From positions 37,094-101,093 of the forward strand of contig JAJCZF010000083.1 of the NCBI GenBank assembly GCA_029262535.1: 64,000 nt of DNA, in the 5' to 3' direction. The notes under the pieces were generated by a model. It was not told where the DNA came from and made no database searches. It saw only the letters and a list, made by a program, of their open reading frames with translations. The translations under genes and the position numbers were made by a program. This document shows, piece by piece, positions 3,073 through 63,642 of this stretch. Origin of the DNA: Deltaproteobacteria bacterium (GTDB taxonomy: Bacteria > Desulfobacterota > GWC2-55-46 > JAJCZF01). Each line of letters starts with the position of its first letter. Positions within the stretch are counted from its first letter, which is position 1.

Positions 3073-3245
3073 CTTAGCCTCCTTGCGAGCCTTTATTCGC
3101 TTCGCTTAAAGCCCTCCATACTTCTATTTTATACCCATTTCCGAGACCGGACAACTTGAATAGAACTATAAAGTCGGAATCGCTTATTAAAAAAGAATTG
3201 ACCACCTATATATCAGGTGCCATATTAAGTTCTAAATATTTTCTT

Positions 3246-3320
3246 TGATCAGAGCAAACCCGTCGAAAGGTGGGGACGCAGAGTCACGAGGCTACAGTGT
3301 GGTTACTATGCCCGTCGGAC
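3246..3320 (+). promoter_or_regulatory. c-di-GMP-I (GEMM-I) riboswitch aptamer candidate
   Basis: AGAGCAAACCCGUCGAAAGGUGGGGACGCAGAGUCACGAGGCU matches the remembered GEMM-I core (GCAAACC, GAAA-tetraloop hairpin, GGGACGCAAAGCC, CGG.CU). Hairpins can be drawn at 3259-3274 and 3286-3315. The 3' strand overlaps a terminator arm. Confidence 0.7.
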
Positions 3321-3353
3321 CGCCGAAGAGCAATTCTTCGGCGGTCTTTTTTT
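3318..3353 (+). terminator. Intrinsic terminator (riboswitch expression platform)
   Basis: Perfect 12-bp stem GACCGCCGAAGA/TCTTCGGCGGTC with a 5-nt loop, followed by T7. Confidence 0.8.
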
Positions 3354-3360
3354 ATCAGAT

Positions 3361-3909
3361 ATGGAGTTTTATAAAAAGATGAGATCTAAACGTTTACGCG
3401 CGCAGCGGCGCGGAGTGGAGCTTGTAAAAAAAGGGCACTATGAAGAGGCGAAAAGAGTTTTTAGCAATAAAGAGATAGAAAGAAGCACCCCGGTATCGAT
3501 AGCGGCCTACGCCCTGACGATGGCCGCCCTGGGCAAGGATGTCGAGATTGCTATCGAGTTATGCCAAAAAGCAAAGAAACGCGACAGCAATAACCCGATA
3601 ATAGGGCTCTGCCCCGGCAGGCTCTACATCTTATGCGGCGACAAGGGACGCGCATTCAAGACATTTATGGAAGGGCTGCACAGTAACGCCGGACACCGTG
3701 AGCTGACCGCGGAACTACGGGCCTTCAAAGAGAGAAGCCTTCCCCCTATCAGACTTCTAAATAGAAGCCACCCGCTTAACAGAGTGCTCGGCAAGAGCCG
3801 TACCCTCTTAAATAGCGACGTCAAAGAATTCCCCGATATGGCGCGCGCCGCCTACCTCTATGCAAGCCAAAAAGAGATTAAACTGCCGGGAAGAGCCTGC
3901 CTTGGTTAA
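3361..3909 (+). CDS. Hypothetical helical (TPR-like by eye) protein downstream of the riboswitch
   Basis: 182-aa ORF. There is no SD before the ATG at 3361; an alternative ATG at 3379 lies 12 nt after GGAG. No recognisable catalytic motif. Confidence 0.5.
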   Translation: MEFYKKMRSKRLRAQRRGVELVKKGHYEEAKRVFSNKEIERSTPVSIAAYALTMAALGKDVEIAIELCQKAKKRDSNNPIIGLCPGRLYILCGDKGRAFKTFMEGLHSNAGHRELTAELRAFKERSLPPIRLLNRSHPLNRVLGKSRTLLNSDVKEFPDMARAAYLYASQKEIKLPGRACLG

Positions 3910-7608: not shown

Positions 7609-7976
7609 GACCTCAATAACTCCCGGTTGAACGGACCAAAACGGTCCGCTTATGATACATCTAAAGCTTTTATCACGAAATCACTTGCTAAATCAAGAAC
7701 TTTTAAGAGATCAATAAAGGAGAATACGAAGGTTTGAGAAAGTCGGCTCTGCAACGTTGAATGGGCGAACTAAATACGGACGAGACGGCCTCCTGTAACT
7801 ATCAACTCATCGGCGAATAGGGAGCGTTTATGCGTCGAGAGCGTCCATGCGGACATCCTGCATTATTAGATTTATTTTTAAAGAGAGGGGTAGTAAGAAA
7901 TGTTTCTAAAAGCCTCTCAGCTTAGAAGAAAAACCGCTTCGCGTACTCTGGCCTTTCGCCCCAGACATAATTCCGT

Positions 7977-8008
7977 GCGCGAAATAAGAGCACACTTGTG
8001 TGCTTATT
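7977..8008. repeat. REP-like palindrome (CGCGAAATAAG-GCACAC-NN-GTGTGC-CTTATT family)
   Basis: gcgcgaaataagagcacacttgtgtgcttatt. The right arm overlaps the queH stop codon. Confidence 0.7.
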
Positions 8009-8621: not shown

Positions 8622-8676
8622 GCGCGAAAGTAAGACCACACCTGTGTGGCACACAGGTGTGCACTTATTTTCGCGG
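8622..8676. repeat. REP-like palindrome, double core
   Basis: gcgcgaaagtaagaCCACACCTGTGTGGCACACAGGTGTGcacttattttcgcgg, with two adjacent CACAC-NN-GTGTG cores flanked by inverted CGCGAAA/TTTCGCG. Confidence 0.75.
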
Positions 8677-8740
8677 AGAAAACTTTCAGATGGCTGGCAG
8701 TCTCCGGGCCGCGTCTTATGTACGTAGTAGTTTCCAAGAT

Positions 8741-10408: not shown

Positions 10409-10434
10409 CAGAGTATAATATCCTGTTATCGCCG

Positions 10435-10460
10435 CCACACAGGTGTGGTTTTATTTCGCG
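10435..10460. repeat. REP-like palindrome
   Basis: CCACACAGGTGTGGttttatttcgcg. Confidence 0.7.
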
Positions 10461-11099: not shown

Positions 11100-11143
11100 G
11101 TTGGGTTTCGCTACGCTGCGCTTCACTCTACCCAACCTACACG
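11100..11143. repeat. GTTGGGT...ACCCAACCTAC hairpin repeat (second dispersed repeat family)
   Basis: gttgggtttcgctacgctgcgcttcactctacccaacctac. Related copies lie at 31905-31940 and, inverted, at 62677-62708. Confidence 0.65.
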
Positions 11144-11154
11144 ATCATATAAAA

Positions 11155-11168
11155 GCACACTTGTGTGG
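11155..11168. repeat. REP-like palindrome core
   Basis: GCACACTTGTGTGG immediately 3' of the yebC stop codon. Confidence 0.6.
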
Positions 11169-28242: not shown

Positions 28243-30978
28243 ATGCTCGATGGCTATGGAAAAGAAAGGCTCGCCCTCTTCGGCCCTCTTCTACGGAAGC
28301 GACCGCTGCTTCTAAGCGGTAACCCGTGGACGGTGGAGCCGGCAAAGTTTCGCTTTAAGCTCGGCGAGACATTTGCCGAACTAAAGGTCCCCTACCACCT
28401 TGGCAAAGAGGACGAGCAGTGTATCGAACGCGCCATACAGGGCCTATTAGGCCTTCTCAAGGAACGCCACGAAAAGGCCGTCGGCGCGTCCATGCTCGAC
28501 CAGCAAGACGACCAGCAGCCAGACTTCCAGAAGAAGCCGACACTCTCCTTAAAAGGACCCGGCGCAAAGACCGAATCCGAAAACGAGCCGCTGCCGGAGC
28601 GCACCTATCGCACCAATATCTTTCCCGAAGGTTCCGCGGAGAAGTTGCTCGTTACGAAGATGATCACGACGACCCCGCTCATCGATACTTCCATACTTAA
28701 GATCTGGCTCGACCCTAACGGCTCCGGCAAGAAGTTCTTCGACTGGGTTTTGAAGCTGATGGAAAAGGCCCTTGTCGAAGAGGCCACACACGGCGAAGGA
28801 GAGATGACGGCCTATCTCGCGCTCATGGCCATACTGAACTCGATCAAGAAAAAGAAGGAGTGCATAAAGGGCTTTTGGATAAAGGGTGTTTCATACGAAC
28901 GTCTTGACATATCAACCGGTTACGCCCTGCACCAGACCGTAAAGACAGCCATAGAGACCTTATTTACGCAGATCAAGGCGCAAAGCGGCATAAAGACCGC
29001 CCCGGCAACCGAGACCCTCTTAAAGTCAGCCATCGCGCCCCATGCCTTTCTCCTCATTCCATCCAACCTGCTATCGAGTTCGCTCAATCCATACTGGCTT
29101 AGAAACGATGTCTCCGAGATCCTCTCGCCCATTCTCGGAGAAGTAACAAGCTGGCCGGACGACCTCAAAGCCCTTAATAGAAAAGTTTCCGACGCGGTTA
29201 ATTCGAATGCGGAGTTACGCGACAGACTCGAATCGATGTACTTCGCAAACGGACTGCGCGAACGCATAATAGAATACCTCATGGAGTTCGATGTAACGGG
29301 AGGGGCCGACTACACGACCTTCTACAACCTCTATAAAGAAGACCGCCAGAGACACCTCAAGGACGGACGCGCCATTACCTCGCTGATGGATCAGGTCAAT
29401 ACACTACTTAAGAGGTTCGAGCGCGACCCGAAGAGAACGGAGAAGCTCAAAGAGCTTCTATCCTTTATAAACTCTTTAAAGGGCTGCCTGGTAGAAAAAA
29501 AAGTAGATAGCAGTCGGTTTATAGAGGCATCTATTCCGCGAATCGTTGAGAGTTTCATAACCCTAAAGCTCGACGCTCATGTAGATCGTTTTGTAAACGC
29601 GTCGAGTGGTACTATGCTCGACCGCCGACTCAAGTACTCGGCCGACCTGCTCGTGGACGAGTTCAAAAACGGTCGCCTTTATCGCTTTGCCACCGACTCG
29701 CGTCCCATACTAAAGGCCCTTGCCATCGAAAAAGAGGGTCAGCTCATGGTGGACATGAAGGACTTTACAAAAAAGACTCTCAAGTTCAAAGAGATCGCAA
29801 TGTCCGAGTTTATGAAGGACCATTACTACGACCCCATTCTCGTCGCCGCGAAAAAGTTCAGCGCCGCGGCCGGCCTGCACGGGGGCGGTCAGGGCATCAC
29901 CTTAAAGAACCTGCCGGGCGACGCCGCCATATTCTCAGGCGGCACGACCAACCTCATTGAACTCGCAAAAGAGATTCGTCTCATCACGCGACGCTACCGT
30001 GAAGAGATCAAGAAAAAGTTCGTGCCCATGCTCGATAAACATATAGAGAACTTTCGCAAAAAATACCAGGTAGAAAAAGACCGCCAATCAAAAGACGCGC
30101 CCGACCTCGAAGAAAGTCTCATCGCGCTCTCGGACGAGGAGGATCTCATCACCTCGGTTTCGCGCGACGAGCTTGAGGCCGATATCACCGAAGACCTTGA
30201 GTGCGGCCTCTTTATCTCATACGGCACAAAGGCCGAGACGATGATCATCGACGCCAAGGAAGGTTTCTCAAACGATATTAAGGTCGCAATCGGAGAAAAA
30301 ATTAATGAAGCCGCGCGCGGCACGGCGCGTAACGCGGCAATCTTCGCCAAGATCGAAAACCGTTACGAACGCGAACGCGCGGCACGAAGGACAAAGGAAC
30401 TCAAATATCCCTTCGATGTATATATCGACAAGATCTATACCATAAAGATACCGCTAGGGCTTGAAGAGTCGGTTGAAGAAGAGATCGACGACCGCGCAAA
30501 GGCCGACCACTCAGACATAGTGCGCACCGTTAGCGAAGAATACCAGAACGACCTTGAGAAATTACGTCTCGGCATGCCGGTATCTTCTTTAAAGGTGCTC
30601 GACGTCACCACCGATATATACAACCGCGGCGAGGCCATAAGCCATGATGCCTTTAACGCATATATGATCGAGACCAAGGCCCGCAAGATCTATTTTAAGA
30701 AAAATATAATGGCCAAGGAACTGCACGAATCGATAAGAGAGAACTACTTCCTGCCGAGCGATACCATAGAGTTATGGATCGGAGCCGAACTAAAAGAAGG
30801 CTCGCGCCAGATAGAGATATTCCACCGCGCCGGCGAGATATCCTTCAAAGGCTTCGAGGCCTCCCCCCCGACCGTAGTATATGAGATACTGGACCCCGAA
30901 GGCGACTTCTTCAAAGACCTCATAAAACACCACTACACCGCGTGGATCGAAGACGCCAGGAGAGAGCAGGGGCACTAA
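28243..30978 (+). CDS. Large orphan protein with central class III nucleotidyl-cyclase-like motifs
   Basis: 911-aa uninterrupted ORF with no SD. Motifs LMVDMKDFT (aa 501-509), LPGDAAIF (aa 557-564), GLFISYG and VAIGEKINEAAR (aa 681-692) follow the order and spacing of cyclase-homology-domain signatures. The rest is unrecognised. Confidence 0.6.
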   Translation: MLDGYGKERLALFGPLLRKRPLLLSGNPWTVEPAKFRFKLGETFAELKVPYHLGKEDEQCIERAIQGLLGLLKERHEKAVGASMLDQQDDQQPDFQKKPTLSLKGPGAKTESENEPLPERTYRTNIFPEGSAEKLLVTKMITTTPLIDTSILKIWLDPNGSGKKFFDWVLKLMEKALVEEATHGEGEMTAYLALMAILNSIKKKKECIKGFWIKGVSYERLDISTGYALHQTVKTAIETLFTQIKAQSGIKTAPATETLLKSAIAPHAFLLIPSNLLSSSLNPYWLRNDVSEILSPILGEVTSWPDDLKALNRKVSDAVNSNAELRDRLESMYFANGLRERIIEYLMEFDVTGGADYTTFYNLYKEDRQRHLKDGRAITSLMDQVNTLLKRFERDPKRTEKLKELLSFINSLKGCLVEKKVDSSRFIEASIPRIVESFITLKLDAHVDRFVNASSGTMLDRRLKYSADLLVDEFKNGRLYRFATDSRPILKALAIEKEGQLMVDMKDFTKKTLKFKEIAMSEFMKDHYYDPILVAAKKFSAAAGLHGGGQGITLKNLPGDAAIFSGGTTNLIELAKEIRLITRRYREEIKKKFVPMLDKHIENFRKKYQVEKDRQSKDAPDLEESLIALSDEEDLITSVSRDELEADITEDLECGLFISYGTKAETMIIDAKEGFSNDIKVAIGEKINEAARGTARNAAIFAKIENRYERERAARRTKELKYPFDVYIDKIYTIKIPLGLEESVEEEIDDRAKADHSDIVRTVSEEYQNDLEKLRLGMPVSSLKVLDVTTDIYNRGEAISHDAFNAYMIETKARKIYFKKNIMAKELHESIRENYFLPSDTIELWIGAELKEGSRQIEIFHRAGEISFKGFEASPPTVVYEILDPEGDFFKDLIKHHYTAWIEDARREQGH

Positions 30979-31121
30979 GTTTTATTAGCACTCGCCCTGC
31001 GGCCTGACGGACATGCCACCATACCCTAAAGAATCAAAGCATCCTTGACCACCAAAAGAACGTTGGTCTCCCCTTCGACACCTTAATGTATTTTTTTCTT
31101 TTTCATTTTTAATATTATGAG

Positions 31122-31138
31122 TGTGTGCTACGCACACA
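31122..31138. repeat. Palindrome related to REP core (inverted order)
   Basis: TGTGTGC-tac-GCACACA. Confidence 0.5.
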
Positions 31139-31213
31139 ACTTCCTTAATGTGGCCCTCTAAAATATTTTCCGACTACTTCCATATTCACGTTGTGCAGAC
31201 ATCTAGCTATTAA

Positions 31214-31718
31214 CCGGGCTTCGCCGTAGTAAGGTTTTACAGATACGCCTGTTTTCTCTTGCCGTTTACCGGCGCTTTGTGAGGGGGTTACGCTCTCTGT
31301 TCCGTCGCAAAAGACCGCTCCTCCTTTTAAGGTCCGCTACACCCCCTCACGGGGTTGTTTTTTTCTGTAAGGATGAAGTCAATTATATAGAAGAAGATGC
31401 ACGATGCATTGGCTCCGCCCTCCTCCCTCACGTCCCGCGCCATTCCCCAGCGGTCGCTGGTCTCTTAGCCGGACACTGGTTAATTAAGATATTAGTGACA
31501 CTAAGCTTTGCGCCCCTAAAAAAGAAGCGCATAAAATCGGACCTGTCCGGCGCACCGCTCCTATTGAAACGGTCGGGATGCTCATAAACGCAAATGGCAC
31601 GCAACGCGGCACACAGGTGTGCTTTTATTTCGCGCAGAAGTTATATCGTAGACGGCTGGTTAGGCGTAACGCGACGAAATATCCTCCTTCTTCCTCAAGG
31701 TAAAAAGCATTTTAAAAA
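31214..31718 (+). repeat. Non-coding element, copy A (~505 nt, includes a 104-nt insertion and a REP unit)
   Basis: Aligns by eye block-for-block with 62829-63226. Shared blocks include ccgggcttcgccgt, gttacgctctctg.ttccgtcgcaaaag, a C-rich terminator hairpin, tgtaaggatga, atgcacgatgcattggctccgccctc, caccgctcctattg.aacggtcgggatgctca, a REP-like palindrome and cttcctcaaggt. Confidence 0.8.
31339..31365 (+). terminator. Terminator-like hairpin inside element copy A
   Basis: ACACCCCCTCACGGGGTTGT followed by T7. Confidence 0.5.
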
Positions 31719-31815
31719 AAAGCCGGTTCAAGGTTGTACCTTGAACCGGAACGTTAAAAGAGTATAGCGGTAAAGCATTTATTCTGAAGCATGGAGAAAT
31801 TGGAAACAACCGTTG

Positions 31816-31902
31816 TCATTCTGAGCAAAGCGAAGAATCTCAGGCTTACGAGTAATGCTATAGCTTGACAACCTGAGACCCTTCGCTTCGCTCAGGGTGA
31901 CA
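31816..31902. repeat. Long imperfect inverted repeat
   Basis: gtcattctgagcaaagcgaagaatctcagg ... cctgagacccttcgcttcgctcagggtgac. The arms are about 30 nt with a loop of about 27 nt. Confidence 0.7.
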
Positions 31903-31904
31903 AT

Positions 31905-31940
31905 TGTTAGGTTTCACTACGCTCTACCCAACCTACGAGG
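31905..31940. repeat. GTTGGGT/ACCCAACCTAC-family repeat
   Basis: ttgttaggtttcactacgctctacccaacctacgagg. Confidence 0.6.
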
Positions 31941-32023
31941 ACTAGTTTTTCATTGAAGTTTCTCTCAGAACCCTGACATAGGAACGTTCTGCCCCTATAT
32001 TTAAAGTATAATAATTAAGGAGA

Positions 32024-32251
32024 ATGAAAATGCCATATAATTTAGAAATTGATTGCAAAAAGCCAGGTAAGAATGACTTACCCGGACCTACATAGACTCA
32101 AATCTTCTCAAAAACCTGGACATCAGGCGAAACAGATGGGAGGAGATACATAACCCCGGAGTGTGCATTTCTACCTGAATTTAAATATGAAATTAAACGC
32201 CTAAAAAAGGAGTTAGACGACATATTAAGCAAAGCAAAGAAGCTCTACTAA
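32024..32251 (+). pseudogene. Small ORF interrupted by a single in-frame TAG (probable pseudogene)
   Basis: A TAAGGAGA RBS is followed by ATG at 32024/32030. The frame reads MKMPYNLEIDCKKPGKNDLPGPT-TAG(32093-32095)-TQIFSKTWTSGETDGRRYITPECAFLPEFKYEIKRLKKELDDILSKAKKLY-TAA(32249-32251). Confidence 0.4.
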
Positions 32252-32352
32252 CCGCAGTAGTTTCATATAATCCTACCTCTTCGACTGGCAGGATCAGTAC
32301 ATATTGACTTATCCTCCCCAATCCATTAGAATTTATCTAAGGGAGACTTATT

Positions 32353-32574
32353 ATGACACGAAAGTATACCGCAGTTATTACTCAGGAAGATAGATGGTAC
32401 GTAGCTCATTGCGTTGAGCTTGGGGTTGTTAGCCAGGGGCTAACACTCGAAAAGGCGCAGGCCAATCTTAAGGAAGCGGTTGAGCTATACATGGAAAGCT
32501 TCGACGTTGAAGACATGCCGGCTTCCACAGGCGAAGTACTCCTCTACCCGCTAGAGGTTGCCGCAGGTGGCTAG
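32353..32574 (+). CDS. hicB: HicB-family antitoxin
   Basis: 73 aa. YTAVITQEDRWYVAHCVELGVVSQG.TLEKA..NLKEA fits the HicB/UPF0150 fold signature. GGGAG RBS. It overlaps hicA. Confidence 0.8.
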   Translation: MTRKYTAVITQEDRWYVAHCVELGVVSQGLTLEKAQANLKEAVELYMESFDVEDMPASTGEVLLYPLEVAAGG

Positions 32575-32788
32575 ACTGCCCGTCCTCTCAGGGCAAAAGC
32601 TCGTAAAGGTTCTCATTAAAGAAGGTTTTGCAAAAGTTCGCCAGAAGGGCAGCCATGTCAGCCTCGAAAAAGGCCCTTTCAAAACGGTAGTCCCCTTACA
32701 CGACGAACTAGCCAAAGGAACCCTGATCGCCATACTAAAACAATGCGGCCTTGATAAGGAAGAACTGGAGAGGCTGATTAATCGGTAG
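32558..32788 (+). CDS. hicA: HicA-family mRNA interferase toxin
   Basis: LSGQKLVKVLIKEGFAKVRQKGSHVSL is the HicA signature. The true start may be GTG 32567 rather than TTG 32558. Confidence 0.8.
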   Translation: MPQVARLPVLSGQKLVKVLIKEGFAKVRQKGSHVSLEKGPFKTVVPLHDELAKGTLIAILKQCGLDKEELERLINR

Positions 32789-32790
32789 TC

Positions 32791-40066: not shown

Positions 40067-41352
40067 AAGAGGTTATAACCTCTCTCGCCGTGCTCCGATA
40101 CGTCCAGTCCCATGACCTCTTCCTCTTCTGTAACGCGAAGCCCTACTACGGCCTTGACTATCATCAGTATCACAAAGGTCCCGACAGCGGCGAGCACGAT
40201 GGTCGCAACTACACTTACTATCTGAATCCAGAGCTGACCTACATTACCGAAGAAGGCGCCCTCGGCCCCGACAGATGCGAATAGGCCGGTCGCTATCGCG
40301 CCCCACATGCCGCCAATGCCGTGTATGCCGAATACGTCGAGCGAGTCGTCGTAGCCAAGCTTGGGTTTAAGGTAACTTACGGCAAAGTAACATATTCCGC
40401 CGCCTATCAGGCCCATGATAAGAGCCGATACCGGGCCGACGAAACCGGCAGCCGGGGTGATCGTCACAAGACCCGCAACCGCGCCGGATAAGGCGCCAAG
40501 CAGTGTTGGTTTGCCCCTGTGTATCCACTCGATGAATGTCCATGAGAGACCTGCCGCCGCCGCAGCGGTATTGGTCGTTACGAATGCGAGCGCCGCCGTG
40601 CCGTCTGCTGCAAGTGCGCTGCCCGCGTTGAAGCCGAACCAGCCGAACCATAGAAGGGCCGTTCCGAGCAGAGTGAGCGTCAGGTTATGCGGCTGCATGG
40701 CGTCTTTCGGGTAACCCTTGCGCTTGCCTATAACGATACAGGCGACGAGCGCCGATACGCCTGAGCTGATATGAACGACCGTGCCGCCTGCGAAATCCAG
40801 CGCGCCCATAGCCCCGATCCAGCCGCCGCCCCATACCCAGTGGCAGAGCGGATCGTATACAACAGTAGCCCAGAGGACCGAGAAGATTACAAATGCCGAA
40901 AACTTAATCCTCTCCGCGAAGGCGCCTGTTATGAGCGCGACCGTTATGATTGCGAACATGCCCTGAAACATCATAAAGATATAATGCGGTATTGTGCCGC
41001 TTGCTTCCATGCCCACACCGGTAAGGCCCACAAACGACAGGTTGCCTACGATACCACCGCCCGCGTCAGGGCCGAAAGCGAGCGAATAACCCCAGAGGAT
41101 CCACTGCACGCCGATTAGGCAGAGAATGAAAAAGCTATGCATCATCGTAGCCAGAACATTCTTACTCCTCGCCATGCCTGCGTAAAAGATACCGAGCCCC
41201 GGTATCATCAACATAACAAGGGCCGCGCAGATAAGGATAAATGCCGTATCGCCCGTATCTATGACCGCCTCTGCCTCAGCCGCCGACGCGATCCCAGTAA
41301 AGACAAATAATATAAGCGCAAAAAGCGCGCCGATAAATCCATATTTCTTCAT
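40063..41352 (-). CDS. amtB: Ammonium transporter (Amt family), copy 1
   Basis: DTGDTAFIL..ALVMLM.PGLG.FY.G and AGG.VVH motifs with 11 TM helices. ATG 41352 has an AGGAGA RBS; the track start at 41412 is an extension. Confidence 0.9.
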   Translation of the reverse strand: MKKYGFIGALFALILFVFTGIASAAEAEAVIDTGDTAFILICAALVMLMIPGLGIFYAGMARSKNVLATMMHSFFILCLIGVQWILWGYSLAFGPDAGGGIVGNLSFVGLTGVGMEASGTIPHYIFMMFQGMFAIITVALITGAFAERIKFSAFVIFSVLWATVVYDPLCHWVWGGGWIGAMGALDFAGGTVVHISSGVSALVACIVIGKRKGYPKDAMQPHNLTLTLLGTALLWFGWFGFNAGSALAADGTAALAFVTTNTAAAAAGLSWTFIEWIHRGKPTLLGALSGAVAGLVTITPAAGFVGPVSALIMGLIGGGICYFAVSYLKPKLGYDDSLDVFGIHGIGGMWGAIATGLFASVGAEGAFFGNVGQLWIQIVSVVATIVLAAVGTFVILMIVKAVVGLRVTEEEEVMGLDVSEHGERGYNLF

Positions 41353-42010: not shown

Positions 42011-43354
42011 CTAAAAGAGCTGGTAGCCGTTCTCTCCGTGTTGCGTGAGGTCGAGGCCGAGCACTTCGTCTTCTTCCGTCACTCTCAGTCCTACCAGAGC
42101 GTTTACTATCTTTAGTATTATATAGGTTCCAACCGCCGAAAAAACTATGGTCACGGCGACGGCTATGAACTGCTTCCATAGCTGTGACGGATCGCCGGTG
42201 AAGAGCCCCTTTGCGCCTATCGATGCAAAGAGCCCAATGGATAACGAGCCGATTATGCCGCCGATACCGTGTATGCCGAATACGTCGAGAGAGTCGTCAT
42301 ACTTGAGGTACGGTTTTAGGATCGTCACGGCGAAGTAACATACAAAGCCGCCGAGGAATCCTATTAGTATAGCCACGCCAGGCGTTACGAAACCGGATGC
42401 CGGGGTAATGGTTCCGAGCCCCGCGACCGCTCCCGATATCGCGCCGAGCACTGTCGGCTTGCCCCTGTGTTTCCACTCTATAAAGACCCAGGTAAGAGTG
42501 CCTACGGCAGCCGCGGTATTTGTCGTTACGAGCGCCATCGCCGCGTTTCCGTTCGCGCCGAGCGCGCTGCCCGCGTTAAAGCCGAACCACCCGAACCAGA
42601 GAAGCCCCATGCCTATTACGGTGAGGCCGAGGTTATGAGGCGGCATCGCAACCTTTGGAAATCCTCTTCTGCCTCCAACGACTATGGCCGCCACGAGGGC
42701 CGATACGCCGCATGAAATATGAACGACTATGCCGCCGGCAAAGTCTAAGGCGCCGAGCTTTCCGAGCCAGCCTCCTCCCCACACCCAGTGGCAGAGCGGG
42801 TCGTATATAAAAGTCGCCCAGAGAACGGCGAATATTACGACGGCTGAGAACTTAACCCTTTCGGCGATGGCCCCGGTAATGAGCGCTACCGTTATGATAG
42901 CGAACATACCCTGAAACATCATAAAGAGTATATGCGGTATGGTTCCGTACGGCTCTGTGCCCACGCCGCGAAGCCCTATGTAGTCGAGGCCTCCTATTAT
43001 ACCGCCGACATCCGAACCGAACGAAAGCGTATATCCGAAGAGTATCCACTGTACGCTTATGAGACATAATATAAAGAAGCTGTGCATCATGGTGCCGAGT
43101 ACATTCTTTTTTCTGGCCATACCCGCGTAAAAGATACCGAGCCCCGGAGTCATCAACATGACGAGCGCGGTAGATACGAGTATCCATGCCGTGTCGCCGG
43201 TGTCTATCGTCCCTCCATCGGAGGCAAGTGCCATACCCGACCTGCCAAGTGTAAATAATAGGACGATACCTACCGCTATAAAAAATCTGCGGGTCAGGCT
43301 GTGAGAAAAAAGGTCGTACTTATTAAGTCGAAGACCAAACGCGCCAAACTTCAT
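42011..43354 (-). CDS. amtB: Ammonium transporter (Amt family), copy 2
   Basis: 447 aa, a close paralogue of copy 1 (DTGDTAWIL..., shared C-terminus RVTEE.EV.GLD...HGE.GY.LF). AAGGAG RBS. Confidence 0.9.
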   Translation of the reverse strand: MKFGAFGLRLNKYDLFSHSLTRRFFIAVGIVLLFTLGRSGMALASDGGTIDTGDTAWILVSTALVMLMTPGLGIFYAGMARKKNVLGTMMHSFFILCLISVQWILFGYTLSFGSDVGGIIGGLDYIGLRGVGTEPYGTIPHILFMMFQGMFAIITVALITGAIAERVKFSAVVIFAVLWATFIYDPLCHWVWGGGWLGKLGALDFAGGIVVHISCGVSALVAAIVVGGRRGFPKVAMPPHNLGLTVIGMGLLWFGWFGFNAGSALGANGNAAMALVTTNTAAAVGTLTWVFIEWKHRGKPTVLGAISGAVAGLGTITPASGFVTPGVAILIGFLGGFVCYFAVTILKPYLKYDDSLDVFGIHGIGGIIGSLSIGLFASIGAKGLFTGDPSQLWKQFIAVAVTIVFSAVGTYIILKIVNALVGLRVTEEDEVLGLDLTQHGENGYQLF

Positions 43355-56509: not shown

Positions 56510-58651
56510 ATGAATACTAAAGACTTCGTAAAAGAGATAAAGCTTCATATAGAGGCCAGGTATCCGGTCCTTTGGCTCGTAAGCTTTGAAGAGCGACGCG
56601 TTGAAAAGGTCGTTGAAGAGCTTTGCAACAAGAGCGATACGCACTACTGGTCCTGGTCGGTCTCGCGCGGCCTTCGTAGCGGTAAGGACAGAAAGAAGGT
56701 CGAAAAGGTTGGACGCGAAAAGATCCTCACGACCATAGAAGAGAAGATAACAAAGAACGAAAATGTCAATAATCTCTTCGTCTTAAAGGATATCGCAACC
56801 TACTTCCACTCGCACGAGTTCCTGCGCAAGTTCCGCGATATACCGGAAATAACCGAAGAAAATCGCGCGCTTAATACCGTATGCATCCTTAGCCCGACGC
56901 TTAGCGAGATCCCGCCGGAGCTTGAAGAGGATATCGTCATAATCGAGCTGTCTCTGCCCGAATATGAAGAGATAGAAGAGCTAGTCCTAAAGACCTTTGG
57001 ACATATGATACCGAAAGAGTGGCACGATTCGACGCGCTCGGTCCTCTATAAGTCGCTTCAGGGCCTTTCTATGGATAATATCCGACGTGTTGTCAGAAAA
57101 GCGGTTAGCATCAACGATAATGTGCTAGACGAAAACTGCATCCAGTTCATACAGGACGAGAAACAACAGATAATAAAGAAGCAGCAGATACTCGACTACT
57201 ACCCGCACCGCGAGTCGATGGAGCATATCGGCGGCCTAGACGAGATAAAGAAGTGGTTCAACGAGCGTGAGCACGTATTTCGCCTCTCGAACGAGCGGAT
57301 CAACGGACTCGGCCTCGACATACCAAAAGGCCTGCTTCTCATAGGCGTACCCGGTTCGGGTAAATCTCTCTGCTGTAAGGCGCTTTCGGGCATATGGAAC
57401 CTTCCGCTCTTACGCATGGATGTCGGGCGTATATTCGGCTCTACCGTTGGTGAGTCGGAGAAGAATATACGCCGCTGCATCCAGCTGGCCGAGGCCGTAA
57501 GCCCGTGTATCCTCTGGATAGACGAGATAGACAAGGCATTTGGCGGCATACAGGGCTTTCAGGGCGACTCGGGCACGCAGCTGCGAGTATTCGGCACATT
57601 CATCACATGGCTTCAGGAGAAGGAAAAACCTGTCTTCGTCATCGCCACGGCGAACGAACCAAAGAACCTTCCGCCCGAACTATGGCGTAAGGGGCGTTAC
57701 GACGAGGTATTCTTTGTGGACCTGCCGAGCGCCGACGAGCGCGAGGATATCTTTAGGATACACCTCGAACGCAAAAACCAGGAGGTATCGCGCCTGAACC
57801 TTACCGACTTTGCCCAAAATAGCCAGGGCTATACCGGGGCCGAGATCGAACAGGCCGTAAAGGACGCCATCGTCGCCAACTTCAACAAGGTTCACGATGG
57901 CAGGAACTTCGAAGAGGCCGAAGACTTCATCAACGATATGGATACGATTGCCGTATCGCAGGACGAGATACTTGAGTCACTCAGGAATATCACGCCTCTA
58001 TCGGCCCTCAAGAAGGAAGAGATAGACGAGCTGCGCAAGTGGTCGCACCAGCGCGCACGCCCCGCCTCTCGCTCGCTCTTTCATCAGAGGGCGGAGTCAC
58101 TCAGCCCCGAAGAGCGTCGCAACCTCTCCATACACGAGGCGGGTCACACCATAACCATGTGGTATCATTTCAAAAAAGGTCCGGCATTCATGTCGATCGA
58201 TACCTACAAGGAATACGGCTCCTACCTGCCGATGGACGAGTCTTCCATGAAATCCTCCACAAAACGGGACCTTGAGAGGGAGATCGGCATAATACTCGGC
58301 GGCATGGTCGCAGAAGACGAGATGGGCGGGCTCGACTCGCGCACGGTCGGGGCCTCGCACGACCTCTCACAGGCCACGTCGCGCGCCAAGCAGATGGTCG
58401 TTGAATACGGTTTTGGCGATAATATCAGAAATACCAGCCTCATGGAGGTGCAGGACTACGCCCTCATATCGGGCCGCGAGATTTTGGAAGATATACAGAA
58501 GATAATAGATACGGCAAGGGAAGAGACCGAGGAGATAATAAACGAGAACAAAGAGGTCTTGGAAGCTCTCGTTCTATTACTCATCGAAAGCGTGCTCTTG
58601 AATCACGATGATATAGTACGCTTCTTTGCAAAACACCCTCTAAAGGACTGA
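56510..58651 (+). CDS. Soluble AAA+ ATPase (Ycf46-like N-terminus) fused to an FtsH-type M41 peptidase-like domain
   Basis: 713 aa with no TM segment. N-terminal IEARYPVLWLVSFEERRVE; Walker A GVPGSGKS (57344-57367); Walker B ILWIDEID; KGRYDEVFFVDLP; C-terminal HEAGH (58133-58147) and VGASHDLSQAT, as in FtsH. Confidence 0.85.
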   Translation: MNTKDFVKEIKLHIEARYPVLWLVSFEERRVEKVVEELCNKSDTHYWSWSVSRGLRSGKDRKKVEKVGREKILTTIEEKITKNENVNNLFVLKDIATYFHSHEFLRKFRDIPEITEENRALNTVCILSPTLSEIPPELEEDIVIIELSLPEYEEIEELVLKTFGHMIPKEWHDSTRSVLYKSLQGLSMDNIRRVVRKAVSINDNVLDENCIQFIQDEKQQIIKKQQILDYYPHRESMEHIGGLDEIKKWFNEREHVFRLSNERINGLGLDIPKGLLLIGVPGSGKSLCCKALSGIWNLPLLRMDVGRIFGSTVGESEKNIRRCIQLAEAVSPCILWIDEIDKAFGGIQGFQGDSGTQLRVFGTFITWLQEKEKPVFVIATANEPKNLPPELWRKGRYDEVFFVDLPSADEREDIFRIHLERKNQEVSRLNLTDFAQNSQGYTGAEIEQAVKDAIVANFNKVHDGRNFEEAEDFINDMDTIAVSQDEILESLRNITPLSALKKEEIDELRKWSHQRARPASRSLFHQRAESLSPEERRNLSIHEAGHTITMWYHFKKGPAFMSIDTYKEYGSYLPMDESSMKSSTKRDLEREIGIILGGMVAEDEMGGLDSRTVGASHDLSQATSRAKQMVVEYGFGDNIRNTSLMEVQDYALISGREILEDIQKIIDTAREETEEIINENKEVLEALVLLLIESVLLNHDDIVRFFAKHPLKD

Positions 58652-58659
58652 GGTGAGCC

Positions 58660-58998
58660 ATGTCATTTTTCACGGTTCTTAAGACCGAAATATCGAATAA
58701 GGATAATATGATCCTCGCCCTAAGATCTCTTGAAGAGTCGGGCGAGATACAGCGCCTCACCATCAACGAGGCAAAAGAGTCCATCGAAGTCGACCGCGAC
58801 GGCGACATCATGACGATTGAGAAGGAAAAGACCGGCACATACAATGTCGCAGGCAACAATACCGCCGTCGAACCCTTTTCAAAGAGACTCAAACAGATCT
58901 ACGCCTTGCAGACGATAAAGGAAAACCTGCCGCTCGACTTCGAGATATCGGAAGAGAGCGAGATAGCCGGAGAGATTCGGATTCTCCTAAAGGGATAA
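58660..58998 (+). CDS. DUF1257 (Ycf35)-like small protein
   Basis: 112 aa with GAGGTGAG RBS 8 nt after the upstream stop. The N-terminus MSFFTVLKTEISNKDNMILALRSLE resembles the remembered DUF1257 start MSHFTTIKT.I.D...L..AL.DLG. Confidence 0.65.
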   Translation: MSFFTVLKTEISNKDNMILALRSLEESGEIQRLTINEAKESIEVDRDGDIMTIEKEKTGTYNVAGNNTAVEPFSKRLKQIYALQTIKENLPLDFEISEESEIAGEIRILLKG

Positions 58999-58999
58999 T

Positions 59000-59200
59000 A
59001 TGGATAGAGAGATAAATATACGCATACTGCCGGACGGCAAGGTCGAAATCGACTCGACCGTCTTTAACGACTGCACAGAAGTCGCAAACCACCTCTCGAA
59101 ACATATCGGACAGGTCGAGTCCTTTCGGGTCAAAGAGGAACACGACCACTCCGACTCGAAGCTCGACAAGGGGGTAAAGGTGGATAAAAGCGATGGCTGA
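59000..59200 (+). CDS. DUF2997-like small protein
   Basis: 66 aa starting 1 nt after the upstream stop. INIRILPDGKVEIDS..F.DCTEV...L...IG resembles the remembered DUF2997 pattern. Confidence 0.55.
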   Translation: MDREINIRILPDGKVEIDSTVFNDCTEVANHLSKHIGQVESFRVKEEHDHSDSKLDKGVKVDKSDG

Positions 59201-59774
59201 CCAAGATAACGATATACGCATCAAGGCCCATGCCGTGCTCATGTCGAGCGACGTAAACGGGCCGGGAAGGCGCGCCGTTATATTCTTTCAGGGCTGCCCC
59301 TTCGACTGTGACGGCTGCTTCAACCCGGAGACACACTCCGAGTCGGACGGATATATGGTCAGCCCCAAAGAGATACTCGACGGCCTGCGTACCGACGAGA
59401 TAGAGGGTATCACCGTTAGCGGCGGCGACCCCTTTATGCAACCCGGCCCTCTTACCGAACTTCTGCGCCTTGCGCGCGACGAGTACGGGCTATCGACCGT
59501 CGTCTATACAGGTTACACGATAGAGCTCTTAAGAAAGAAAGCCGAGCTTGCAAGGCCGCTCGAATATATAGACGTTCTCATAGACGGCGGATTCGTGAGC
59601 CACCTGATGGAGCCCACGCTGCTTGCGCGCGGCTCGACCAACCAGCGCTTTCACTTTCTGACCGACTATTATGAGATAGGCGACTTCTACATGCCCTCAA
59701 AGGCCGAGATCGTAATACGGCCGGACGGCACCATTACCGGCACCGGCTTTAGAGAGACCCTTGGTCACCATTAA
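59193..59774 (+). CDS. NrdG/PflA-type radical-SAM activating enzyme
   Basis: 193 aa overlapping the upstream gene by 8 nt. NGPGRRAVIFFQGCPFDCDGCFNPETH carries CX3CX2C (59295-59318), and GITVSGGDPF is the SAM-binding GGE-like motif. Confidence 0.8.
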   Translation: MADQDNDIRIKAHAVLMSSDVNGPGRRAVIFFQGCPFDCDGCFNPETHSESDGYMVSPKEILDGLRTDEIEGITVSGGDPFMQPGPLTELLRLARDEYGLSTVVYTGYTIELLRKKAELARPLEYIDVLIDGGFVSHLMEPTLLARGSTNQRFHFLTDYYEIGDFYMPSKAEIVIRPDGTITGTGFRETLGHH

Positions 59775-59814
59775 AGTAGCCGGATTTCAAATTGAAAAAT
59801 TAAAGCGGCTCTAG

Positions 59815-59834
59815 GGAGTACTACGGAGTACTAC
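59815..59834 (+). repeat. Tandem 10-mer (GGAGTACTAC)x2
   Basis: Exact direct duplication 24 nt upstream of the Hsp70-like ATG. Each unit contains the palindrome AGTACT. Confidence 0.8.
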
Positions 59835-59857
59835 CCAGGCAACGCCGATAGCTAAAA

Positions 59858-62659
59858 ATGACCGAAGCTACCCCTGACGAGACATTTGAAGATATAAAGG
59901 CCATCTCCGACACCAAGGAGCGGAAGCTCGCCATGTTGCGCCTGCTCAAAGAGCTGGACGACTCCCCTTCAAACGCGCCTATATATGCCGGAGCCAAGGA
60001 GATCTTTTGTGCCCTTCCAGAGGAGGACGAGAAACGCGCGGCCCTGCACGAACTCATAATCTCGCTACCGATGGAGTCCTACTTTCTCGATATCTATCAC
60101 GACATCATATTCATCCTGCTCGACTCTGCCGAAAGGATCGAAGGCCAGAGATACCGTAAGTCTCAGCTCCTGCGTATCGCCAGCGAGATTCCTCTGGAGC
60201 CTGAATTTTTTCCTCTATTTAAAGACGCCATTAATCGCACCATCACGGCCTCTAACGCCTGCGACGAACTATTCGTAAGAAGGTACGCCCTCTTTAATAT
60301 AGCCGAACGCCTGCCCCTGGACGAAGAGTTTACCGAGATGCGCTACCGCGCCCTCTCGCTCGCGCTCGGCCTCTCAGACGAAGCACCGGAGCGCAGAGAC
60401 TCATGGGAGCTACTTGCATTTGAGCTACCCAAGGTATGCGACTATACTTTTTTCGTAGATAATACATTTCTGGGCATTGCCATCAGGATGCCCAAGACCG
60501 GTGTCTTTCGCCCCCTCTATATGCAGGCCATTGAGATTGCGCTTGAGGCCTCCGACCATATGGAGGAGCCCTATTTTAAAAAATACGCCCTGCTATACAT
60601 AGCGAAATCCCTTCCTAAGGAAGAGGTCTTCGAACCTCTCTACAGAAGGGCGCTCGAAAAGACCTGTGAAGCGGCAATGGATATCCGCGATCCTTTCATC
60701 AACCACATCACAGTGCTTGAGATACTCGAAGTATTACCAAAGACAGAGGCCTATTACCCGCTGATACTAACGCTCATAGAAAAGGTCCTGCCATTTTACT
60801 CGGTTAAGAGCAGGATAGACGACGTGGCGCTCCTGGACGTAATAGACTACATCATCATCGCCGAAGAACGCAAGATCGGCGAATCCAAAAAGAATCGCTA
60901 TACGCGCGAATCATACGCCAGAACATTTGCAAAAGTCCTGCTCTCCTTCGGTCTCGACCTGACCGACGTGCGCTTTATCGAACCTCTAAAACCCTATACG
61001 CATGTATGGATAAAACCCCCGGAACTTCGCGAAGCGGCCAGCAAGGTCGTCAACCACCTCGAAGGGCTAAAGACCCTCTACCACGGCGCAGAGCTACTGC
61101 GTCCCTTAATGGTATCGGAGAAACATCGCGGCGAAGAAGGCTTGTACCGGGGTATGAAAGAGGACGCCACGATGCGCGAGGCGAGCGACACAATCGTCAT
61201 CGACATCGGCGCGTCAAATACCATCATCATGAAAAAACGCCTCAAAGGGCGCGCAAACTATGTAGAGTTCAACGAGATATCGAGACGTTTCGGAGATGTC
61301 GTCACCATCCCTACCGTCTACAACGAACGCACCGACACCATCGGCACGGCGGCCTTAGAAGACGACGCCTCCCGTAAAGGTGTTAACATAAAAAAACTGC
61401 TTATCGGCGGCAACCCGCGCGGACGCGACCAGATGGCCCATTTCTTTAACCTCTTATTCGAGCGCATAAAGGAAGAACTCCAGCCGCGCGGCTGGAGAAA
61501 GATCATCTCAAGCGCACCGAGTGAGACATTTTATATAACCGTGCCGGTCGGCCTCACCGACTACAAAAACCGCCTCAAGGATATCATCACCGCCGAGGCA
61601 AAGGGCATACAGGCCGAGTTTATCGAAGAGCCGCTGGCCGCCGCCATAGGTTATCAGGTCGCCGAAGAGAGCGAAAAGCTTGTTATGCTGATGGACTTCG
61701 GCGGCTGTACGCTCGACGTCATGGCGCTTCGCATCTCGAGCGGGACCGTTCATGTCGTAGCCAAACCGGATCGCTCACAGCTCGTCGGCGGTCAGGATAT
61801 CGATTACTGGTTGGCCGAATACCTTGGCGAACGCGCCGAGCTGTCGGTCATCGGCAGCGAGCCGCACGCGGCCCTCATCAAAAAGGCGGAAGCGCTGAAG
61901 ATCGCTCTCTCGTCTCACCATGAAGTCCCCTTCGTATGGGAAGGTAGTGAACTCTTCAAGGTAACGCTACAGGATTTTGAAGAGCTACTTCAGGACCGCG
62001 ACTTCTACCGCACCGTGGACCGCGCCGCCTCCTTCGTGCTGGCAAAGTGCGCCAAGGTCGGCATCAAGACCGAGAACTTCGAGGCCGTGCTCCTAACGGG
62101 CGGCTCTAGCCAGATACCGTCCTTCAAGGAGAAGGTCGGCCATCTCTTCCCCGCGCTAAGGCGGACAAACGCGATATACGACCACAGCCCGCTATCTGCC
62201 GTCGCAACCGGCGCGGCCTACTACGGCACGCGCGACGTGGTAGACCGCCACCTCGCAATCGCATATGCCGTAAAATATGTAACCGGCGAAAAGAAGATCG
62301 CTCACGAACTGATACTGGAAAAAGGCGAACCCCTGCCCTTCGAACGCACCTTCCGCGCAGACCCCGCCCAAACACTCGGAGAACAGAACCAGATCTCAAT
62401 TGAACTATACGAGATCCCCGACGCCCTGATAACGAGACGCTGGGAGCTGACCGGCGGATTCGAATATATAAAACAGGTAATAAAAGAGTCCGAAGATACC
62501 GAAGATATAGAACTAAAACCGCTAAAGATAATCACCCTGCCCTACAACCGCGAGATCACCGGCGAAGAGGAGGTAACCTTCGTACTCGACGAAACCGGCC
62601 GCCTCAAGATCAAATACGATAAAGGTAAAGAAGTCGATTCGGGGATAAGGCTGCAGTAA
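59858..62659 (+). CDS. Helical-repeat domain fused to an Hsp70/DnaK-like ATPase with lidless beta substrate-binding-like domain
   Basis: 933 aa. Hsp70 motifs IVIDIGASNT, FYITVPVG, EEPLAAAIGY, MLMDFGGCTLDV, GGQDID, VLLTGGSSQIPSF and PLSAVATGAAYYG. The N-terminal 430 aa contain about 8 repeats of a ~40-aa unit. Confidence 0.8.
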   Translation: MTEATPDETFEDIKAISDTKERKLAMLRLLKELDDSPSNAPIYAGAKEIFCALPEEDEKRAALHELIISLPMESYFLDIYHDIIFILLDSAERIEGQRYRKSQLLRIASEIPLEPEFFPLFKDAINRTITASNACDELFVRRYALFNIAERLPLDEEFTEMRYRALSLALGLSDEAPERRDSWELLAFELPKVCDYTFFVDNTFLGIAIRMPKTGVFRPLYMQAIEIALEASDHMEEPYFKKYALLYIAKSLPKEEVFEPLYRRALEKTCEAAMDIRDPFINHITVLEILEVLPKTEAYYPLILTLIEKVLPFYSVKSRIDDVALLDVIDYIIIAEERKIGESKKNRYTRESYARTFAKVLLSFGLDLTDVRFIEPLKPYTHVWIKPPELREAASKVVNHLEGLKTLYHGAELLRPLMVSEKHRGEEGLYRGMKEDATMREASDTIVIDIGASNTIIMKKRLKGRANYVEFNEISRRFGDVVTIPTVYNERTDTIGTAALEDDASRKGVNIKKLLIGGNPRGRDQMAHFFNLLFERIKEELQPRGWRKIISSAPSETFYITVPVGLTDYKNRLKDIITAEAKGIQAEFIEEPLAAAIGYQVAEESEKLVMLMDFGGCTLDVMALRISSGTVHVVAKPDRSQLVGGQDIDYWLAEYLGERAELSVIGSEPHAALIKKAEALKIALSSHHEVPFVWEGSELFKVTLQDFEELLQDRDFYRTVDRAASFVLAKCAKVGIKTENFEAVLLTGGSSQIPSFKEKVGHLFPALRRTNAIYDHSPLSAVATGAAYYGTRDVVDRHLAIAYAVKYVTGEKKIAHELILEKGEPLPFERTFRADPAQTLGEQNQISIELYEIPDALITRRWELTGGFEYIKQVIKESEDTEDIELKPLKIITLPYNREITGEEEVTFVLDETGRLKIKYDKGKEVDSGIRLQ

Positions 62660-62676
62660 AGACGCGACCAAACCCC

Positions 62677-62708
62677 CGTAGGTTGGGTTACGTCTTTCAA
62701 CCCAACAT
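62677..62708. repeat. GTAGGTTGGGT...ACCCAAC-family repeat (inverted orientation)
   Basis: cgtaggttgggttacgtctttcaacccaacat. Confidence 0.6.
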
Positions 62709-62828
62709 ATAGCCGTATGCTAGTCAGTGCCCACCGCCTTTCATATAATAATAAAGACTGGCCTTGCCAGTTCAGGTTTGTAACCTGAACCGAAACTTTA
62801 AAAAGATGTAGCTGCTACAAAATCTCAG

Positions 62829-63226
62829 CCGGGCTTCGCCGTGCGGGTCTGTGAAGACTGGTATTTTTTGTCTTGCTTCGCGCTTTGTGGGGGGAGTTAC
62901 GCTCTCTGATTCCGTCGCAAAAGCGCTCCTCCCTTTATGTTCGCTCCACCCCCCACGGGGGTGTTTTTTTTTTGTAAGGATGAGGACGATTAGATAGAGA
63001 CAAATGCACGATGCATTGGCTCCGCCCTCTTCCCTCACGGCGCGCGCCATTCCCTTTCGCACCGCTCCTATTGGAACGGTCGGGATGCTCAAAAACGTGA
63101 ATAGCACCCGCCGTAGCACGCAATGCGTGCGTTAATTTCGCGCAACCACCACCGAGTAGTTTGCAAATCCTTCCAAGCGCGAAATAACCGGCCCTCTTCC
63201 TCAAGGTTAAAAACATTGTTTTAAAA
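62829..63226 (+). repeat. Non-coding element, copy B (~400 nt)
   Basis: Collinear with 31214-31718 apart from a 104-nt indel and scattered substitutions. Confidence 0.8.
62947..62973 (+). terminator. Intrinsic terminator inside element copy B
   Basis: CACCCCC-cac-GGGGGTG followed by T10. Confidence 0.6.
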
Positions 63227-63286
63227 TCAATAACTCTTAATAAAGTGGGCTGTGCGAACATAGTATTCGCACAACCCACACATTAA

Positions 63287-63525: not shown

Positions 63526-63642
63526 TTAGGCTTTCACCCATATTGCCCACGCTTTCAAACCAAAATCCTTGGCATATACACGCTTGCCATTTTTGGTAAT
63601 CCAGGCGCGAAAAATGAGTCGCCTTCTAGCTTTCTTAGCCAT
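63526..63642 (-). CDS. Tiny basic protein (38 aa), absent from the ORF track
   Basis: ATG 63642 lies 8 nt after GGAGG. Sequence MAKKARRRLIFRAWITKNGKRVYAKDFGLKAWAIWVKA. Confidence 0.45.
   Translation of the reverse strand: MAKKARRRLIFRAWITKNGKRVYAKDFGLKAWAIWVKA

Follow-up and report, generated by a model that had tools for sequence, protein, structure and literature searches.

Two copies of a non-coding element between convergent genes: a plus-strand terminator module and a candidate convergent structured RNA

Why should two unrelated genes of one bacterium be followed, in the same orientation, by versions of the same long non-coding sequence? The question was raised by a 64,000-nucleotide (nt) stretch of DNA, hereafter the window, from contig JAJCZF010000083.1 (assembly GCA_029262535.1) of an uncultured sulfate-reducer-like bacterium. 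An earlier note on the window had described two diverged copies of an element in the same orientation. Both copies sit between convergent genes. Alignment with MAFFT and blastn bore this description out: every block that had been quoted is present, and the distances given to the upstream stop codons (236 nt for copy A and 170 nt for copy B) are correct. The limits of the two copies, based on MAFFT alignment to each other, blastn and nhmmer, are as follows.

31214-31720: copy A of the element, 507 nt including a 100-nt copy-specific insert
62829-63228: copy B of the element, 400 nt

The copies are colinear and identical at 299 of 408 columns (73%), excluding a single 100-nt indel (31447-31546 in copy A). 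In blastn they align in three segments, of 179 nt (86%), 87 nt (82%) and 47 nt (81%). There are runs of 26, 17, 16, 14 and 14 identical nt, and comparison with shuffled match/mismatch vectors showed that conservation is clumped (sum-of-squares test, p about 1e-4), which points to selection or mosaic history rather than uniform drift. The 33-nt pattern of block 4 occurs exactly twice in the window versus zero expected. Besides a small repetitive unit described below as T2, blocks 1-5 (about 370 nt) are present in only two copies in the window. The element begins with CCGGGCTTCGCCGT and finishes with ...CAAGGTAAAAAGCATT, termini that are not inverted repeats. Its GC content (50-53%) matches that of the genome, and the DNA to the right of both copies is AT-rich (37-43% GC).

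Several results agree with the earlier call that the element is non-coding. In none of the six frames do the substitutions between A and B favour a codon position (for example 27/31/30), all six frames carry stops, and the indels within conserved stretches measure 1, 1, 2 and 1 nt. The open reading frames (ORFs) that cross the two copies lie on different strands and in different frames. A Pfam scan of ten of the 12 six-frame translations (six of copy B and four of copy A) returned a best E value of 0.03, with all matches below the cut-off. The longest ORF, a spurious one of 115 amino acids (aa) in copy B, had no homologue among 5.8 billion proteins and, used there as bait for further copies of the element, found none. 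The translated search for a known insertion sequence (IS) or gene thus gave no clear match.

No described family accounted for the element either. The cmscan search against Rfam proposed in the earlier note yielded no family for it: at gathering thresholds, Rfam 15 gave for the whole window a single match, to a c-di-GMP-I riboswitch, and at E<=10 the two copies drew scattered sub-threshold matches with no family common to A and B. The riboswitch aptamer itself occupies 3243-3327 on the plus strand, scores 62 bits against a gathering score of 35 and closely precedes an ORF at 3361-3909. Exact-pattern searches with block 4 and an 18-mer of block 3 against GTDB species genomes, with block 4 and a 20-mer of block 3 against JGI metagenomes, and with three conserved blocks against IMG/VR produced nothing or k-mers at chance rate, without flanking similarity. 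Plasmids and phages, searched with blastn in distant mode, yielded no match to the element. In the window and about 150 kb of relatives' syntenic loci, blastn, an nhmmer profile and a covariance model found only A and B. The element belongs to no described family, and its kind, a lineage-specific structured intergenic repeat or candidate non-coding RNA (ncRNA), is a familiar one.

What, then, could such an element do? The plus strand carries the following features, T2 being a unit like the repetitive extragenic palindromes (REPs).

31214-31366, plus strand: module 1 of copy A, in the 3′ untranslated region (3′-UTR) of the gene for a 911-aa protein; begins with the conserved 5′ block CCGGGCTTCGCCGT and contains a G-run (31279-31288), a CU stretch (31320-31325) and the T1 hairpin (31341-31355) with a T-tract to 31366
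62829-62973, plus strand: module 1 of copy B, with a G-run (62887-62894), a CU stretch (62928-62933) and the T1 hairpin (62947-62963) plus a T10 tract
31608-31635, plus strand: T2 of copy A, a REP-like unit made of the hairpin GCACACAGGTGTGC + TTTTATTTCGCG, with an inverted partial arm at 31668-31683
63116-63143, plus strand: T2 of copy B, with an inverted partial arm at 63177-63188

T1 consists of ACCCCCTCACGGGGT + TGTTTTTTT in copy A and of CACCCCCCACGGGGGTG + T10 in copy B, that is, of a GC stem followed by 7 T (A) or 10 T (B), and in both copies it has the sequence hallmarks of an intrinsic (Rho-independent) terminator. After each upstream gene, no other terminator-like site on the plus strand precedes T1, which places module 1 (about 150 nt) in the 3′-UTRs of those genes. 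The previous statement that the first ~140 nt end in a terminator is in line with this, a canonical plus-strand T1 closing the first ~150 nt.

Module 1 also holds alternative pairings. In copy A, all 10 nt of the G-run GUGAGGGGGU (31279-31288) are complementary to ACCCCCUCAC (31341-31350), and in copy B GUGGGGGG is complementary to CCCCCCAC, which gives 8 base pairs (bp) between the G-run and the left arm of T1. The CU stretch offers a third, competing helix with the G-run. Residue A31282 can pair with U31325 of the CU stretch or with U31347 of the T1 arm, and its counterpart G62890 with C62933 or C62953, an A-U/G-C compensatory difference that keeps the pairings. Hence the antiterminator-like logic suggested in the earlier note stands as regards the complementarity, which has been kept by compensatory change, but there is no obvious target for it to regulate. 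No sensor (aptamer, leader peptide or known protein site) could be recognised in the element, no aptamer was found with Rfam, and no conserved plus-strand ORF or gene follows T1, the next plus-strand feature being T2. Since there is neither a recognisable sensor nor a plus-strand gene downstream, we did not file the element as an attenuator or riboswitch.

The two strands were then compared for conserved folding. RNAalifold consensus structures, computed from copy A minus its insert together with copy B, reached -107.4 kcal/mol on the minus strand versus -75.8 kcal/mol on the plus strand. Column shuffling gave z values of -8.3 (minus) and -4.0 (plus), and class-preserving shuffles -7.0 and -2.8. 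The minus-strand consensus contains 96 pairs, 17 of which vary between the copies; all 17 are still paired, seven of them by double change, compared with three double changes in the plus-strand consensus. This strand difference comes from blocks 2-5, where the consensus alone amounts to -79.3 kcal/mol on the minus strand versus -41.8 on the plus strand (z -7.8 versus -3.0), module 1 being a tie (alifold z -3.4 plus, -3.0 minus). The earlier treatment of the whole element as one plus-strand unit is therefore not supported, blocks 2-5 folding far better on the minus strand. The predicted minus-strand features are listed below.

31368-31697, minus strand: structured domain of copy A, closed by helix M1 (block 5, 31687-31697, with block 2, 31368-31378)
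62975-63203, minus strand: structured domain of copy B, with M1 formed by 63193-63203 and 62975-62985
31590-31607, minus strand: 5′ strand of helix M2 in copy A, pairing with 31430-31446 (and 31547); strands in copy B 63097-63114 and 63037-63054
31551-31575, minus strand: hairpin M3 (block 4, the most conserved block); in copy B 63058-63082
31390-31429, minus strand: helix M4, the G-rich strand of block 3 with a palindrome/variable stretch; in copy B 62997-63036
31447-31546, minus strand: insert of copy A, located in the junction between M3 and the 3′ strand of M2; absent from copy B

The individual helices carry the same signature. M1 has 10 bp with one compensatory change. In M2 (15 bp), five pairs differ between A and B (four by wobble and one by compensatory change) and no pair is lost; several of these positions would be C.A mismatches if read on the plus strand. 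M3 is a 10-bp stem with an AAUA loop, and its sole difference replaces a minus-strand U.G pair by C-G; the plus-strand reading would have a C.A mismatch there. M4 comprises 14 pairs, with one compensatory and two wobble changes, and competes with a local AUGCA/UGCAU hairpin. Partition-function folding of either copy by itself predicted M2, M3 and the T2 hairpin at probabilities of 0.77-0.99; in full copy A the pair probabilities were 0.97 for M1, 0.88 for M2 and 0.82 for M3. When the sub-RNAs bounded by M1 were folded (63218 to 62968 in copy B), A and B shared one architecture in their minimum free energy structures. As a single sequence, copy B is more structured on the minus strand (z -5.1) than on the plus strand (z -2.0). 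The insert of copy A is predicted to be a self-contained branched hairpin (z -2.9) around which M2 still forms, with a probability of 0.88. A CsrB-like sponge was considered and rejected: on inspection, GGA motifs are not enriched and are mostly inside stems.

The explanation that we favour, with a probability of roughly 0.4, is that the element is a lineage-restricted non-coding cassette composed of a plus-strand 3′-UTR/terminator module and a convergent minus-strand structured RNA domain. Such a cassette would have come to lie in two convergent gene junctions and would most likely act at the RNA level, in two parts. The first ~150 nt, read on the plus strand, would be the tail of the upstream operon transcript and would supply its first intrinsic terminator, T1. 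The upstream G-run would pair either with the CU stretch or with the left arm of T1, and the efficiency of termination, or the shape of the released 3′ fragment, could depend on which helix the G-run forms. The remaining 230-330 nt (blocks 2-5) would be a structured RNA made from the minus strand, convergent with the upstream gene, in which the pairing of block 5 with block 2 (M1) would close a junction of several helices, comprising the REP-like arm pair, the T2 hairpin, M2 enclosing M3, and M4. The analysis establishes the duplication, the absence of coding constraint, the lineage-specific location, terminator T1, the complementarities and the difference between the strands in conserved folding. 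That either strand is transcribed, where the resulting RNAs would start and end, and that they would have any regulatory effect are predictions of this model. Since the minus-strand RNA would run towards T1 and the upstream 3′-UTR, one might guess at an antisense or insulator action.

A more specific version is possible, although we hold it to be on the unlikely side. Blocks 2-5 would then be an undescribed 230-330-nt minus-strand RNA family, coupled head-to-head with a plus-strand terminator/switch in a self-contained convergent RNA pair; a long-range helix would close a four-way junction, and one paralogue would bear a modular extra stem. Copyable between convergent junctions, the pair could regulate the 3′ ends of long operons by antisense action or insulate their transcription.

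A number of observations weigh against the minus-strand RNA domain. Two sequences are too few for statistical covariation, and the consensus was scored on the sequences it came from. Copy A is not significantly structured alone (single-sequence z -1.3 to -1.6 on the minus strand and +0.6 on the plus strand). In full-length copy B, M1 and M4 have a pair probability of 0.00 because competing helices win, and they appear only once the RNA is cut to the domain. Helices that derive from the REP-like part are DNA palindromes and are uninformative on strand. As to expression signals, neither strand of the element has a conserved convincing sigma-70 promoter, and no conserved match to a sigma-54 promoter was found at either end. 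Strong terminators immediately precede the element on the minus strand (31723-31749 and 63245-63279), and no minus-strand terminator follows helix M1.

The nearest rival is that the element is a non-autonomous mobile or mosaic DNA repeat, similar to a miniature inverted-repeat transposable element (MITE), a bacterial interspersed mosaic element (BIME) or a REP doublet (REPIN), which has spread or been copied into transcriptionally 'safe' convergent junctions. On this view any role of its hairpins would be confined to single-stranded DNA, and the terminators would be carried along incidentally. We judge this unlikely on balance; observations on the genomic context speak for it, beginning with the location of the two copies, which counts in favour of the cassette as well. 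The 911-aa gene upstream of copy A (28243-30978, plus strand) has 11 full-length homologues (37-47% identity) among the 5.8 billion proteins, and the 933-aa Hsp70-like protein encoded upstream of copy B has four; the latter gene is the last of a conserved five-gene operon (56510-62659, plus strand). The 'orphan locus' label of the earlier note is thus wrong for both genes, which have full-length homologues in conserved synteny in related metagenome-assembled genomes (MAGs). Likewise, its 'cyclase-like' label for the 911-aa protein is unsupported, neither a domain nor a solved relative having been found with Pfam, PDB and PADLOC. The gene order TPR (minus), 911-aa (plus), PP-loop 282 aa (minus), ThiI/NFACT-R (minus) and M50 peptidase (plus) is the same in the window and in three related contigs, yet the convergent stop-codon gap after the 911-aa gene measures 13-28 nt in relatives versus 1.8 kb in the window (30979-32790). 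After the Hsp70-like gene, the relatives have convergent genes (selD, DUF218, selB) at 5-256 nt. No similarity to the element was detected at the orthologous junctions of these relatives by blastn, nhmmer or a covariance model. With such short, element-free gaps in relatives, the element is no conserved 3′ appendage of the upstream genes and lies in lineage-specific DNA, an addition in this genome. The relatives, annotated as Thermodesulfobacteriota/Deltaproteobacteria MAGs, are distant, and the age of the added DNA cannot be dated from them.

The 1.8-kb insert contains copy A, a hairpin called H here, a long palindrome, a REP headed by GTAG, ORF fragments and a hicB/hicA pair. Both copies of the element lie in lineage-specific DNA between convergent genes, beside accessory DNA of 37-43% GC and, at copy A, beside hicBA, as a mobile repeat would. 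T2 points in the same direction. The 'REP-type palindrome' of the earlier note, T2 is a member of a repeat family made of a hairpin + TTATTTCGCG, and this ~28-nt sub-unit is the only part of the element that recurs, at no fewer than four other sites of the window. Its terminator-like hairpin (31608-31633 and 63116-63140) has the plus-strand orientation in both copies and shows one compensatory A-U/G-C change between them. The inverted partial arm about 40 nt downstream is REPIN-like. Elsewhere in the window, the GCACACnnGTGTGC hairpin + TTATTTCGCG repeat was located at 7976-8003 (minus strand), 8625-8680, 10433-10460 (plus strand) and 11149-11167; it is sometimes found directly after a stop codon, where it is terminator-like, and once as an inverted pair. 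GTAG-headed REP-like units, in which the head is followed by a GTTGGGT.../...ACCCAAC hairpin, occur at 11100-11140 (minus strand), 31900-31936 (minus strand) and 62675-62710 (plus strand), so that each copy of the element has one nearby, on opposite sides. Hairpin H is arranged in a similar way.

31721-31759, minus strand: hairpin H, CCGGTTCAAGGTACAACCTTGAACCGG + T8 on the minus strand, directly right of copy A

A second H site, 82% identical, lies left of copy B (62764-62803). H is thus permuted relative to the element, after copy A (where it is a strong minus-strand terminator) and before copy B, as expected of shuffled modules. Finally, short-read contigs of the same sample (SRR15505517) stop inside both copies. 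One ends at 31280 and the other at 62895, at the G-run ~66 nt from the start of the respective copy, even though no 31-mer is common to A and B. Additional near-identical copies, a G-run that differs between strains or an artefact of sequencing could each account for these stops.

Other properties of the element are hard to reconcile with a mobile repeat. It lacks terminal inverted repeats, and inspection revealed no convincing target-site duplication, the flanks of both copies sharing only TTAA or AAAATC-like strings; these are not the features of a MITE. There are two copies only in 64 kb, and none was found in the collections searched. The copies have diverged by 27%, yet blocks of 26-33 nt are intact. 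A plain DNA palindrome would not be expected to fold so differently on its two strands, with G.U pairs on one of them. The mobile-repeat explanation and an RNA function are, moreover, not mutually exclusive.

The surroundings of the two copies deserve a brief description. At copy A, the fragmentary ORFs span 32026-32250, a hicB-like antitoxin gene 32353-32574 (plus strand) and the hicA toxin gene 32558-32788 (plus strand; Pfam HicA, E = 2.4e-16); 2 nt separate the stop codons of hicA and the convergent PP-loop gene. The long imperfect palindrome (31803-31915; GTCATTCTGAGCAAAGCGAAGAATCTCAGG ... CCTGAGACCCTTCGCTTCGCTCAGGGTGAC) yields a spurious ORF, 'ILRFAQNDN', and false Rfam microRNA matches, and another short-read contig of the same sample begins inside it, at 31874. 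The 911-aa gene always adjoins a divergent TPR protein gene in the relatives' loci, one of which has an inversion breakpoint directly after the 911-aa gene. The operon upstream of copy B encodes an FtsH-like AAA+/M41 protease, proteins of 112 and ~63 aa, a radical SAM protein (Fer4_12) and a 922-938-aa protein whose Hsp70/actin-like ATPase domain is C-terminal, in an order that is identical in four related MAG lineages. For the genes flanking the element, the five-gene operon included, PADLOC gave only weak generic matches. To the right of copy B, small basic ORFs of 57 aa (63287-63460, minus strand) and 38 aa (63526-63642, minus strand) have good Shine-Dalgarno sites and their own terminators in AT-rich DNA; neither has a Pfam match, and their proteins are not on record in the contig index. 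We also considered A and B as att direct repeats of a 31.6-kb island and rejected the idea, the intervening DNA (amtB-glnB-amtB, thiE, ntrC, glgA, flagellins) being core and syntenic with relatives. In that region, two ammonium-transporter paralogues (40742-41262 versus 42690-43207, 73-75% DNA identity) flank a small gene, an amtB-glnB-amtB arrangement that is the same as in relatives. ARAGORN found no tRNA or tmRNA gene in the window, and neither did Rfam.

A unit confined to the plus strand is an improbable alternative to the cassette. The first ~150 nt would form a 3′-UTR-derived or independent small RNA ending at T1, and the G-run/C-run switch would be an attenuator that lets transcription continue into a second RNA ending at T2. 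T1 and T2 are indeed plus-oriented in both copies, and the three mutually exclusive pairings described above are kept by coordinated substitutions. Conserved C/U-rich stretches (CUCCUCC, CCCUCCUCCCUC, UCUUCCUC) could, to judge from their sequence, serve as anti-Shine-Dalgarno seeds, and a promoter-like site (10/12 match, 62721-62749) precedes copy B. Copy A, however, has no promoter-like site upstream, and the T-tract of T2 is weak in copy B. A plus-strand unit also leaves without explanation the much poorer fold of blocks 2-5 on that strand, and the lack of a recognisable sensor, an Rfam match and a gene or conserved ORF after T1 tells against an attenuator.

Far less probable is a locus resembling a type I toxin-antitoxin system, in which a small minus-strand ORF with a short hydrophobic core (31443 to 31327 in copy A, MARDVREEGGANASCIFFYIIDFILTEKNN...) would be the toxin, and the plus-strand RNA of module 1 ending at T1, which overlaps the 3′ end of this ORF, would be the convergent antisense antitoxin. 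Sequestered start codons are common among toxin genes, and txpA/RatA-type loci have a convergent 3′ overlap. The start codon of the ORF is inside helix M2, its 38 codons align gap-free between A and B, the hydrophobic stretch changes conservatively (F/L, I/L, F/C), and the convergent 3′ overlap resembles that of txpA/RatA-type loci, the antisense overlap with module 1 being only positional. Against a toxin gene, the ORF ends at different stop codons in the two copies (after 38 aa in A and 92 aa in B), no spacer separates the Shine-Dalgarno-like GGGGA/AGGGA from the AUG, and substitutions show no third-position bias. Furthermore, the hydrophobic stretch spans about 13 residues only, with an Asp in copy A, and the longer copy-B ORF that contains the peptide is the one that lacks a homologue. 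A decayed remnant of a gene, IS element or prophage fragment, duplicated and drifting neutrally, would suit the position of the copies in accessory DNA beside fragmentary ORFs, but it is highly improbable given six-frame translations without a Pfam family, a longest ORF without a homologue, the empty blastn search against plasmids and phages, clumped rather than uniform conservation and compensatory changes that argue for constraint.

If the minus-strand domain is a real RNA, a little-studied lineage would have supplied a new family of structured ncRNA, and a terminator module and a convergent structured RNA would be seen to travel together as one cassette. Should it be no more than a mosaic repeat, the element would join the other lineage-specific intergenic repeats and be of local interest only. 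For annotators, the 3′ flanks of these two conserved operons are best treated as recent additions in this genome and not as conserved UTRs.

How does the element compare with known systems? The enterobacterial CpxQ/SroC class comprises small RNAs that are embedded in 3′-UTRs or share the terminator of an mRNA, and that carry an intrinsic terminator. Like them, module 1 is directly downstream of a long operon, keeps conserved blocks upstream of its terminator and ends at the first intrinsic terminator. Unlike them, the element shows neither a demonstrable internal promoter nor a site of processing, it fits the class over only a third of its length, and it is absent from the relatives' orthologous loci and duplicated behind two unrelated genes. 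With attenuators and riboswitch expression platforms it shares the mutually exclusive helices formed by the T1 left arm, the G-run and the CU stretch, kept in both copies, and it differs from them in having no recognisable sensor, Rfam match or downstream same-strand gene. The resemblance to REP, BIME and REPIN sequences lies in the intergenic position between convergent genes, the single hairpin + TTATTTCGCG unit and the proximity of GTAG-headed REPs; in contrast to these sequences, the element is 400-500 nt long (not 20-100 nt), has long-range helices and is for the most part (blocks 1-5) unrepeated elsewhere in the window. Set against the large structured bacterial ncRNAs that comparative genomics has brought to light (OLE, ROOL, GOLLD, raiA and HEARO/omega RNA), the minus-strand domain resembles none of them in sequence or structure, matches none of 4227 Rfam models as a family shared by the two copies, even at E<=10, has no associated protein gene (IscB, TnpB and the like) and is represented by two examples only. 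It has in common with these RNAs its size of 230-330 nt, a predicted multi-helix junction, a variable insert in that junction and mobile or accessory DNA nearby, and the insert of copy A, placed in the junction with a hairpin of its own, is like the variable stems of structured RNAs.

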